Source: a phage
Reading direction: 5' to 3' (one strand)
Sequence record: PZ296772.1
DNA length: 64,000 bases
The notes below the pieces were generated by a model that was not told the DNA's origin, did not search any database, and was given only the letters and a program-made list of their open reading frames with translations. Made by a program: the position numbers and the translations under genes. Below are positions 44,907 through 46,991 of the stretch, piece by piece (positions within the stretch are counted from its first letter, which is position 1; the number at the start of each line of letters is the position of its first letter).

Positions 44907-44936
44907 GTTTACAACCAAGGACGGTTGGAGTATAAT
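44907..44936 (+). promoter_or_regulatory. sigma70-type early promoter (conserved-spacer family)
   Basis: gtttaca, spacer ccaaggacggttgg, tataat. Confidence 0.6.
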
Positions 44937-44966: not shown

Positions 44967-45461
44967 ATGAATATCAATACTACGTCTACTTACATCCTGA
45001 AAGACGAAAAACAAATCAACTGGTACGGTGCTTCAGTGCGAGCTTATGAAAAGTTTTGTGAAATTTTAGGTGCCACTCAAGGTAATAGTTTCACTATTGT
45101 TAACTTCATTAAACAAGTTGAAGGCCCTTGGTTATTCTTAGAAATTAAAAATTCATACGGTACAATTTCTACTACTGCCATCCCAAGCACCGACTTTGAA
45201 CTGTTGATTGAAGAAGCACCTGTTAAAGATGGTCTCCACTTTGATATGGATATCGTTTGTATGTACGGTACTCTGATTAAGCCTATTGAGCCTACTGATT
45301 TATTGTGTAAATATGTTTCAATTCGACGCCCATTCGATGGTCCAGTAAATGGATGGGTAACTGACCAGTGGATTGAAGATGGGGTTGAACTTCTGAACGT
45401 TGTTCATGCCGGTGATTTTAGTGTGGTTCCACGTAGTGCAGTAGTTAATATTCTAAATTAA
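44967..45461 (+). CDS. paralogous family protein 1 (conserved C-terminal DQWxEDG domain)
   Basis: 164 aa; C-terminus GWVTDQWIEDGVELLNVVHAGDFSVVP. Confidence 0.55.
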   Translation: MNINTTSTYILKDEKQINWYGASVRAYEKFCEILGATQGNSFTIVNFIKQVEGPWLFLEIKNSYGTISTTAIPSTDFELLIEEAPVKDGLHFDMDIVCMYGTLIKPIEPTDLLCKYVSIRRPFDGPVNGWVTDQWIEDGVELLNVVHAGDFSVVPRSAVVNILN

Positions 45462-45463
45462 TG

Positions 45464-45493
45464 TTGTACATCCAAGGATGGATGGAGTATAAT
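45464..45493 (+). promoter_or_regulatory. sigma70-type early promoter (conserved-spacer family)
   Basis: ttgtaca, spacer tccaaggatggatgg, tataat. Confidence 0.6.
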
Positions 45494-45522
45494 GAATTCA
45501 ATTTAACAAAGAGAGAAAAATT

Positions 45523-45978
45523 ATGATTACTATTGGTGAAATTAAGCGTGTATCAACTGCATCCCGGTCTAAAGCCGCAGGTCGTCTGGTTGAAGTGGTA
45601 GGACTTCGCACAAATGGCATGGGACGCATTAAAGAAGTTAAAGTTCGAATCATTCCTAGTTTTGGACGTCAGGATACTCAGCACGCTTACGTAAGTCCTA
45701 AATTCTTGGAAACTCCTGTGAGCGCTCATTTTGCTTCTACTGAACCTAATGCACAGTTCAAATGGGCCTTGTGTAAAGGTGTTGAATTCCAGACTGATAA
45801 AGAATTTGACTTCATCGATGAATACGGTTATCCAAGCAAAACTGATACTATGTGTGGCTTCATTAGTGACCAATGGGTTGAAGATGGTGAAAAGTTATAC
45901 AATATCGTATTCTTAGGTGACTTCCGAGTTGTTAAAGAATCTGAAATCACTCGTTATGTGTCTCCTCGTAAAGCTTAA
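45523..45978 (+). CDS. paralogous family protein 2 (conserved C-terminal DQWxEDG domain)
   Basis: 151 aa; C-terminus GFISDQWVEDGEKLYNIVFLGDFRVV. Confidence 0.55.
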   Translation: MITIGEIKRVSTASRSKAAGRLVEVVGLRTNGMGRIKEVKVRIIPSFGRQDTQHAYVSPKFLETPVSAHFASTEPNAQFKWALCKGVEFQTDKEFDFIDEYGYPSKTDTMCGFISDQWVEDGEKLYNIVFLGDFRVVKESEITRYVSPRKA

Positions 45979-45987
45979 GGAATTATT

Positions 45988-46407
45988 ATGAATATTGTAA
46001 ATCTCTCTACAGGTGATTACGTATATGTATCTGTTGCTTCTCGCTCTAAAGTTGCCGGGAAGTTGGTTGAAGTTCTTTCTGTGAGTGATCCGGTTTTTGG
46101 TCGTAACCAAGTTAAAGTTCGTGACGCCGATGGTAACATTGGTTACGTTAAAAGCCAATTTATTGAACCAGAAGAAAAAGCGTTCAAATGGAAACTGGGC
46201 AGATCAGTTTTAGTTGTAAAAGACTACGAGTTCACCATTGCCGCTGCGACAGATGGAACACCGTGGACAACGAATCAAGTTGCTGGTTTTATTTCGGACC
46301 AATGGGTAGAAGATGGTGTTAAGCTTTATAACATTGTTTTCGCTGGGCAGTTCATGGTAGTTCCTGAGTTCCAAATCAAAAAATATTGTCCAGCATCTTT
46401 TGCATAA
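45988..46407 (+). CDS. paralogous family protein 3 (conserved C-terminal DQWxEDG domain)
   Basis: 139 aa; C-terminus GFISDQWVEDGVKLYNIVFAGQFMVVP; N-terminus resembles protein 2. Confidence 0.55.
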   Translation: MNIVNLSTGDYVYVSVASRSKVAGKLVEVLSVSDPVFGRNQVKVRDADGNIGYVKSQFIEPEEKAFKWKLGRSVLVVKDYEFTIAAATDGTPWTTNQVAGFISDQWVEDGVKLYNIVFAGQFMVVPEFQIKKYCPASFA

Positions 46408-46411
46408 AGTT

Positions 46412-46460
46412 GTTTACTTCTCCTCCGGTTTTGATATTATAACCATATCAACCAGAGGAG
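46412..46460 (+). promoter_or_regulatory. early promoter with flanking imperfect stem-loop (PeSL-like)
   Basis: gtttac -35, tattat -10, arms tcctccggtt / aaccagagga. Confidence 0.55.
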
Positions 46461-46466
46461 AATAAT

Positions 46467-46991
46467 ATGTTAGTTTACCGCGTAGAACGTAGTTTTTGTA
46501 CTCAACGTGAATCATTACCAGGAATTGCTATCGAAGATGGTAAAGCCGTCAGAATTTGGGAAACCTCTTGGAATAAAGAACCTCGCTCACCATACGGTTG
46601 GTCAGGCACCGACAACTCTGAAGAAACATGGGAGTTCCTTGATAAACATGGAATACTCTCAGGTAACTTCTACCATCATGGCGACAACTATAATGTCCCT
46701 AATCGTCCTACAGTAAATGAAGACAAACTCCTTGAACAAAATATCTTAAGATACCATAGAATTGAGCACACATTTGAATTGAACGAAGATTGGGCTCAAG
46801 GGTTCTATTTTGGATTTGAAAGTGTTGACGCGGTTTATGCATGGTTTGATGACCAGGTGGATGTTGAACTCTTGAAAGCTAAAGGATACTACATCGCTGT
46901 CTATGAAGCACCCGATTTCATCCTCGGAAGTTGTCAATTAATGTTTAGACGTTCATTGGCAGAACAAGTTGATTTTATTTTGCTAAAATGA
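46467..46991 (+). CDS. hypothetical protein
   Basis: 174 aa; gaggag RBS. Confidence 0.5.
   Translation: MLVYRVERSFCTQRESLPGIAIEDGKAVRIWETSWNKEPRSPYGWSGTDNSEETWEFLDKHGILSGNFYHHGDNYNVPNRPTVNEDKLLEQNILRYHRIEHTFELNEDWAQGFYFGFESVDAVYAWFDDQVDVELLKAKGYYIAVYEAPDFILGSCQLMFRRSLAEQVDFILLK

Follow-up and report, generated by a model that had tools for sequence, protein, structure and literature searches.

The phage sequence PZ296772.1 (64,000 nucleotides (nt); the whole stretch is called the window here) carries three consecutive plus-strand open reading frames (ORFs), P1, P2 and P3, that are members of a known family of non-essential early genes, MotB/MotB.1 (Pfam PF17613, 'MotB, modifier of transcription'). 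Sequence similarity and gene position identify P1 as the ortholog of MotB.1, P2 as the ortholog of MotB and P3 as a second motB copy ('MotB-like'). We make this assignment because of the Pfam and PHROG matches, the identity with phage pEK20, the orthology with phage T4 genes and the synteny with phages T4 and RB69. A first-pass annotation had described ORFs of 164, 151 and 139 amino acids (aa) as a tandem triplication within an expanding accessory family. The three ORFs are present as described; the family is not new, MotB and MotB.1 having been characterised (PMC6070864, PMC7827196, PMC12152347), and the finding is a rediscovery of this published family in an RB69-like phage. Taken as a whole, from identity and architecture to expression, mechanism and origin, the explanation presented here is very probably the best one. 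The coordinates are collected in Table 1.

Table 1. Features of the motB cluster and its expression signals, in window positions.
Feature	Position	Strand	Basis or remark
P1, motB.1-type gene, 164 aa from ATG	44967-45461	+	ORF, BLASTP, PHROG, Pfam
P2, motB ortholog, 151 aa	45523-45978	+	ORF, Pfam, PHROG, tblastn
P3, second motB copy ('MotB-like'), 139 aa	45988-46407	+	ORF, BLASTP, Pfam
C-terminal domain of P1 (aa 108-164)	45288-45458	+	alignments A4 and A5; DSSP; isoelectric point 4.45
C-terminal domain of P2 (aa 79-151)	45757-45975	+	alignments A3 and A5; DSSP
C-terminal domain of P3 (aa 66-139)	46183-46404	+	alignments A3 and A5
Early promoter of P1, TTTACA-17-TATAAT	44908-44936	+	sigma-70/T4-early type, 11 of 12 matches
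Early promoter of P2, TGTACA-17-TATAAT	45465-45493	+	sigma-70/T4-early type, 10 of 12 matches
Signal of P3: AAGGA ribosome-binding site only			9 nt past the P2 stop; no promoter of its own
Copies of the core CCAAGGAYGGWTGGAGTATAAT	847-868, 1867-1888, 44915-44936, 45472-45493		window
Promoter of motB.2, TTTACT-16-TATTAT with TG and stem-loop	46413-46462	+	downstream boundary of the cluster

The C-terminal motif that had been reported as common to the three proteins is supported by significant pairwise and profile matches. BLASTP gave E-values of 4e-10 for P1 and P2 (16 of 36 residues identical, C-terminal part), 3e-11 for P1 and P3 (18 of 29, C-terminal part) and 2e-29 for P2 and P3, which align over their full length with 43% identity; the alignments with P1 reach just its last ~30-36 residues. 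All three proteins pass the PF17613 gathering score of 25 bits, P2 (124.7 bits, E-value 4.3e-36) and P3 (81.8 bits, 6.6e-23) over their full length and P1 (34.6 bits) in its C-terminal part only (aa 88-159). P2 and P3 also match PHROG 1671, 'MotB-like transcriptional regulator' (1.7e-63 and 1.3e-50); P1 matches PHROG 2333 (3.5e-81) and has a secondary, C-terminal match to PHROG 1671. The notion that the motif is a compositional accident in unrelated ORFs can be dismissed: it is ruled out by the pairwise E-values (4e-10 to 2e-29) together with the Pfam scores, and the motif is kept in homologs from 781 phage records. In a six-frame translation of the window, DQW[IV]EDG occurs exactly three times, always in P1, P2 or P3, and a six-frame scan of the window for hidden extra copies or remnants, such as the 29-aa ORF of RB69, found none beyond these three.

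The arrangement is not a simple tandem triplication. P2 and P3 are full-length paralogs, and the SRSK-AG-LVEV segment that had been noticed in the N-termini of both is real in the alignment, whereas P1 shares only the C-terminal domain (CTD) with them. Nor is the homology limited to ~35 residues, as had been proposed; it extends over the whole CTD, which has ~57 residues in P1 and 73-74 in P2 and P3. The models predict that each protein consists of a pair of small beta-barrels on either side of a flexible linker, with an N-terminal part that varies. P2 has a basic KOW-like barrel (aa 1-62; isoelectric point (pI) 11.3, net charge +8), a disordered linker (aa 63-78) and the C-terminal barrel; its AlphaFold2 (AF2) model has a mean predicted local distance difference test score (pLDDT) of 80.8 and places the KOW-like barrel at residues 7-57. 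P3 is built like P2, with a KOW-like N-terminus and the C-terminal barrel, but its linker is shorter. The combination of a KOW-like N-terminal domain (NTD) and the conserved CTD is that of MotB proper ('Category 1'). In P1, an alpha/beta NTD (aa 1-83) that is unrelated to the KOW-like NTD of P2 and P3 is followed by a low-confidence linker (aa ~90-108) and the MotB-family barrel, and the AF2 model (pLDDT 79.8) shows the NTD at 1-83 and a compact five-stranded barrel at 116-163. P1 aligns with T4 MotB.1 over aa 3-136 (BLASTP, 5e-27, 37% identity), and its T4 MotB.1-homologous NTD and DPTDLL...GWVTDQWIEDGVELLNVVH-type CTD place it in the MotB.1 subgroup. A longer version of P1 that begins with a TTG at 44925, inside the promoter, is unlikely.

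The genomic setting gives the same answer. At the DNA level, the window has 99.5% identity with Escherichia phage vB_EcoM-pEK20 and 96-99% with other phages of the Mosigvirus JS09 type, and by this measure the window phage is a Mosigvirus JS09-like T4-type phage. The P1 protein is 100% identical to pEK20 UAW07270, P2 is 47% identical to T4 MotB (tblastn), and the equivalent genes in JS09-type relatives are annotated as motB.1, MotB and MotB-like. The cluster lies in the conserved early block srd-dda.1-dda-dexA-(motB cluster)-motB.2-cef-goF, with the dda helicase and dexA exonuclease genes on its 5' side and motB.2, cef and goF on its 3' side; this is where MotB-family genes are located in T4-like genomes, in the early region between dexA and cef-goF. 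Synteny of the region holds with both T4 and RB69, and none of the three proteins failed reciprocal best-hit or synteny tests against the motB and motB.1 genes of these two phages.

A good deal has been published about this family. T4 MotB is an early, non-essential and abundant protein that binds modified and unmodified DNA with no sequence specificity, is toxic on over-production, raises the burst size twofold and is purified together with H-NS and StpA (Patterson-West et al. 2018, PMC6070864). MotB and MotB.1 were reported to have a common CTD and different N-termini, the family was sorted into four categories, and two motB genes, one motB.1 gene and a 29-aa peptide were described in RB69, a Mosigvirus (Patterson-West et al. 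2021, PMC7827196). The N-terminus of MotB.1 was recently modelled as LSm-like, alongside GoF and Frd.2 (Kim et al. 2025, PMC12152347). The family itself, the common CTD, the divergent N-termini and the multi-copy state in RB69-type phages are therefore already known; the only non-trivial additions made here are a Tudor/SH3-like reading of the CTD and corrections to the MotB.1 annotations of T4 and RB69.

The first of these additions comes from the predicted structure of the CTD. The consensus of the domain is G[WFY][VI][ST]DQW[VI]EDG..L.N.V..G, and L, F, D, W, E, G, L, N, V, G and V do not vary in alignment A5, which contains CTDs of both branches; P2 and P3 have an insertion of 14-17 residues in the first hairpin relative to P1. 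According to DSSP, the CTDs of P1 and P2 each have five strands (86-98, 104-120, 123-130, 133-138 and 142-146 in P2) and a short helix before the last one. Such an order of strands, with the short helix ahead of the final one, agrees with an SH3-like barrel; the five strands, the short 3-10 helix and the significant structural matches are those of SH3-like small barrels. No OB-fold appears among the top 60 structural matches, and the modelled CTD does not have the OB/cold-shock topology. The SH3/Tudor-like model thus differs from the published view, derived from HHpred, that the MotB CTD belongs to the OB-fold/cold-shock class (SCOPe b.40.4.5; PMC7827196). The resemblance to Tudor, KOW and PWWP SH3-like barrels, such as the 53BP1 tandem Tudor, the ERCC6L2 Tudor and the KOW domain of NusG/Spt5, is one of fold only, with 9-21% identity and no detectable sequence relationship, and profile searches of the PDB with full-length and CTD profiles gave no meaningful match to a solved structure. 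F16 and W28 are the only invariant aromatic residues in A5, and the Tyr of the MotB 'KLYN' is replaced by Leu in MotB.1-type CTDs; with a single Trp and a single Phe that are invariant, it does not seem likely that an aromatic cage for methyl-lysine is conserved.

What would these proteins do? By orthology with T4 MotB, P2 and probably P3 would be abundant, sequence-non-specific DNA-coating proteins that change the placement of H-NS and StpA on DNA and so aid the takeover of the host. We predict that DNA is bound mainly by the KOW-like N-terminus because the NTD is basic, the CTDs are acidic (pI 4.45 in P1 and 4.68 in P2) and only acidic or hydrophobic residues are invariant in the CTD. The acidic Tudor/SH3-like CTD would more likely serve as a protein-interaction or self-association module than as a DNA-binding OB-fold, and P1, which has a net charge of -9, probably has another cargo, either RNA or protein, which it takes to the same partner. 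The model thus points experiments on DNA binding to the N-terminus and experiments on interaction to the C-terminus.

One could alternatively suppose that all three proteins coat the nucleoid by binding DNA through a cold-shock/OB-fold CTD, the copies serving to raise the dosage or to bind different DNA states. The HHpred assignment (PMC7827196) and the tight DNA binding of MotB (PMC6070864) speak for this, as does the fact that the CTD is the sole part common to the three, so that a shared activity would map to it. We consider it rather unlikely in view of the invariant CTD residues (D, Q, W, E, G, L, N and V), which are acidic or hydrophobic, the pI of ~4.5 of the P1 and P2 CTDs and the acidity of P1 as a whole. 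A further possibility, tentative and of low probability, is that the CTD, instead of being an OB-fold that binds DNA, is a Tudor-like docking or self-association module that takes three different N-terminal binders of nucleic acid, two KOW-like and one LSm-like, to one target in the host, which might be H-NS/StpA filaments or RNA polymerase. If so, the paralogs would work together, possibly in hetero-oligomers, and would not be redundant copies.

Several points weigh against the explanation preferred here. The functional experiments concern T4 MotB and not the Mosigvirus proteins, the P3-type copies or full-length MotB.1. The CTD of T4 MotB is mildly basic (pI 8.6), and so the charge argument is not universal. 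Our AF2 models were built from shallow alignments (25-33 sequences) and have predicted template modelling (pTM) scores of 0.48-0.49, values that we ascribe to the flexible linkage of the domains. Moreover, either domain of MotB has been considered a possible DNA binder, and a DNA-independent interaction between MotB and H-NS was not detected (PMC7827196), a result that weakens the case for direct H-NS binding by the CTD. In this respect, MotB, seen with H-NS only when DNA is present (PMC7827196), is unlike the H-NS antagonists T7 gp5.5 and T4 Arn, which bind H-NS directly and are unrelated to MotB in sequence and fold; early interference with H-NS silencing is a possible theme that the three share.

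The first-pass annotation had also suggested that the family expands under diversifying selection, as anti-defence or host-range factors do; in a fuller form of this view, each copy would be tuned to a different host defence. Some observations would favour such a scenario: T4-like phages have anything from 1 to 3 copies, the CTD stays constant while the N-terminal modules attached to it are exchanged, the region has a higher synonymous divergence than its flanks and has been exchanged between genera, and H-NS, the host protein to which MotB is linked, silences foreign DNA (PMC7827196). The part that holds is the multi-copy accessory family with a conserved CTD and divergent or swapped N-termini. 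Selection is another matter. Pairwise Nei-Gojobori ratios of non-synonymous to synonymous divergence (dN/dS) between the window and five other Mosigvirus genomes are 0.14-0.21 for P1, 0.13-0.28 for P2 and 0.08-0.17 for P3, as compared with 0.00-0.04 for dda, 0.03-0.21 for dexA and 0.14-0.40 for goF; that is, all three genes are like goF and little above dexA. Synonymous divergence in P1-P3 is mostly 0.2-0.57, mostly above that of the dda/dexA flanks (0.04-0.17). By these comparisons, P1-P3 are under purifying selection, somewhat relaxed relative to core genes; gene-wide diversifying selection is rejected. The N-termini differ by domain replacement (alignment A4) and not by fast point substitution. 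The ortholog groups are also well conserved (139-aa orthologs of P3 are 84-96% identical), and in laboratory hosts a T4 motB knock-down merely halves the burst size and a motB.1 deletion has no phenotype (PMC6070864; PMC12152347). We therefore regard a set of defence-tuned copies as improbable. In a loose sense, the connection with defence survives, since T4 MotB alters the DNA binding of H-NS, a xenogeneic silencer; an anti-defence or host-range role would be putative. No PADLOC match or other sign of anti-defence was found, and no search aimed at it was made.

Of 50,697 phage records searched with tblastn, 771-781 contain the family; their hosts are Escherichia, Shigella, Klebsiella, Yersinia, Salmonella, Enterobacter, Edwardsiella and relatives, and all of the records that we inspected are T4-like Straboviridae genomes. 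When 1.84 billion cluster representatives were compared with a CTD-only profile, just 29 proteins reached E <= 0.001; those whose sequences were read are small KOW+CTD or MotB.1-type proteins, apart from two (P0184 and P0187) that we treated as spurious rather than as remote homologs, being repetitive Ig-like/fibre-like proteins with a short GYxWxxxG match. An apparent occurrence outside the T4-like phages, a weak CTD-only match in the 141-kb genome of DCP80, proved to be in a Gaprivervirus, which is T4-like. To judge from these searches, the CTD is confined to T4-like phages, with 1-3 copies per genome.

The copy numbers that follow come from about a dozen inspected genomes. Enterobacter, Edwardsiella and Kosakonia T4-like phages, including PEi20, CIP9 and Kosakonia phage 305, have one copy, which combines a KOW N-terminus, a linker motif and a MotB.1-type CTD. 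T4 and Gaprivervirus VR25 have two copies. Three copies are present in the Mosigvirus phages JS09, pEK20, mogra, JK36, NBG1 and RB69 and in Tequatrovirus PP01, and P3 itself is also found in RB69 and PP01. The CTD of P1 is 68-86% identical to CTDs of proteins with unrelated N-termini (alignments A4 and A5), and a ~80%-identical MotB.1-type CTD is joined to at least four N-terminal arrangements (proteins of ~145, 165, 180 and 250 aa), which implies that diversity arises by replacement of modules. As for the spread of the genes, the PP01 protein is 91% identical to P3, as compared with 79% for motB and 70% for dexA. This excess over dexA and the raised synonymous divergence suggest that the cassette has been exchanged between lineages and genera, and the PP01 values indicate a transfer between Mosigvirus and Tequatrovirus. 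The early region that holds the cluster is dispensable and prone to recombination.

We infer the following origin. One ancestral KOW+CTD gene, still single-copy in Enterobacter and Edwardsiella T4-like phages, would have been duplicated, and the N-terminus of one duplicate would have been replaced to give MotB.1; MotB was presumably then duplicated again, and the cassette may have spread between phage genera by recombination. Three metagenome proteins (P0148, P0149 and P0151) are chimeras of a P2- or T4-type MotB N-terminus and a P3-type CTD, with the junction in P0151 exactly at DQWVEDG. Either the tandem copies have recombined or the short contigs were wrongly assembled.

A sequence motif in the linker of P1, D-x-D-[IV]-x-x-M-Y-x-T-x-[IV]-K-P-[IL] (aa 93-108; window 45243-45290), also stands between the domains in the single-copy KOW-type homologs (A4), and is N-terminal, ahead of the NTD, in the 180-aa and 250-aa MotB.1-type proteins. 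It is absent in T4 MotB.1, and AF2 confidence is low at the motif in P1. It might be a short linear interaction motif.

Each of the three genes had been credited with its own promoter or ribosome-binding site. P1 and P2 do have strong promoters, and the NBG1 ortholog of P1 has an annotated promoter at the equivalent position, while P3 has only a ribosome-binding site. Because that site is just past the P2 stop and no promoter precedes P3, P2 and P3 are probably on one transcript. From the match to the consensus, transcription would start right after infection from sigma-70-type early promoters, with separate transcription of P1 and joint transcription of P2 and P3.

The promoters of P1 and P2 are near-identical and both contain the 22-nt core CCAAGGAYGGWTGGAGTATAAT, of which four copies are present in the window as compared with zero expected by chance. 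The similarity of these cassettes extends over ~70 nt, from the -35 box to the start codon, and they stand before unrelated genes (phrog_2351, phrog_1435, motB.1 and motB); the genes behind the copies at 847 and 1867 lie at 895 and 1917 and are of unknown function. Co-duplication of promoter and gene was considered and rejected since the same cassette precedes these unrelated genes; the P1 and P2 promoters are a dispersed cassette and no evidence of a duplication unit. The cassettes resemble the PeSL mobile regulatory cassettes of T4-type phages (PMC2839356, PMC4122927) in that an early-promoter cassette is repeated, with modular shuffling, and in that the motB.2 promoter overlaps a strong stem-loop; a role in recombination is putative. 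They differ from PeSLs in that the cassettes of P1 and P2 have only weak stem-loops (z -0.2 to -1.2), no better than shuffled sequences; the motB.2 promoter is the only one with a strong stem-loop.

The gene beyond the cluster, motB.2 (ORF 46467-46991; BLASTP against T4 MotB.2, 4e-16), is outside the MotB family: the motif is absent from MotB.2, and P1 has no similarity to T4 MotB.2. Its hairpin (46418-46462; -19.8 kcal/mol, z -3.9) has the Shine-Dalgarno sequence GAGGAGA as its 3' arm, and the loop holds the -10 box of the motB.2 promoter. The Shine-Dalgarno sequence would be sequestered on read-through transcripts from motB and free on those from the proximal promoter. The gene order is dexA-motB.1-motB-motB-like-motB.2 in the window and dexA-motB.2-motB.1-motB in T4, i.e., motB.2 is downstream of the cluster in the former and upstream in the latter.

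P2 and P3 resemble T4 MotB (NP_049626) in the KOW-like N-terminus with SRSK-AG-LVEV, in the CTD with DQWVEDGVKLYN.VF, in the neighbourhood upstream of cef-goF and in the early promoter. They differ in that T4 has one copy and the window two, in the shorter linkers of the window proteins, in which the ETID-SHVGVDF linker motif is degenerate (P2) or lost (P3), and in the charge of the CTD (pI 4.7 in P2 versus 8.6 in T4). P1 resembles T4 MotB.1 in its homologous NTD, its DPTDLLCK..GWVTDQWIEDGVELLNVVHAG-type CTD and its position directly upstream of motB, and differs in a 20-residue linker insertion (HFDMDIVCMYGTLIKPI) that T4 is without. P1 is also full length, whereas the reference annotation of T4 MotB.1 ends early.

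This early end looks like a sequencing artefact. The motB.1 gene of the T4 reference (AF158101/NC_000866; minus-strand region 1792-2151 of NC_000866) has one extra G (ATT-G-GAA), which shortens the annotated protein (UniProt P39415) to 119 aa and 13.8 kDa, with the end ...DQWIGRWR. The extra base is absent from 13 other records, namely 11 of T4 (including T4T), RB55 and RB59 (210 versus 211 nt), and the one T4 record that we retrieved (MT984581, 150-581) has a 143-aa MotB.1 annotated, with a complete CTD. The error matters for constructs designed from the reference sequence.

RB69 is of the same genus as the window phage and has the same order of genes (dexA, motB.1, motB, MotB-like, motB.2, cef), with 88-92% protein identity. 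Its motB.1 (RB69p013, 132 aa; NC_004928, 4377-4873, minus strand) is broken by two single-base insertions in the RB69 record, whereas that of the window is intact. RB69p012, the 29-aa 'Category 3' ORF of PMC7827196, is the out-of-frame tail of this gene, and so the '29-aa peptide' category is the remainder of a broken motB.1, which is relevant to those who work on T4 early genes.

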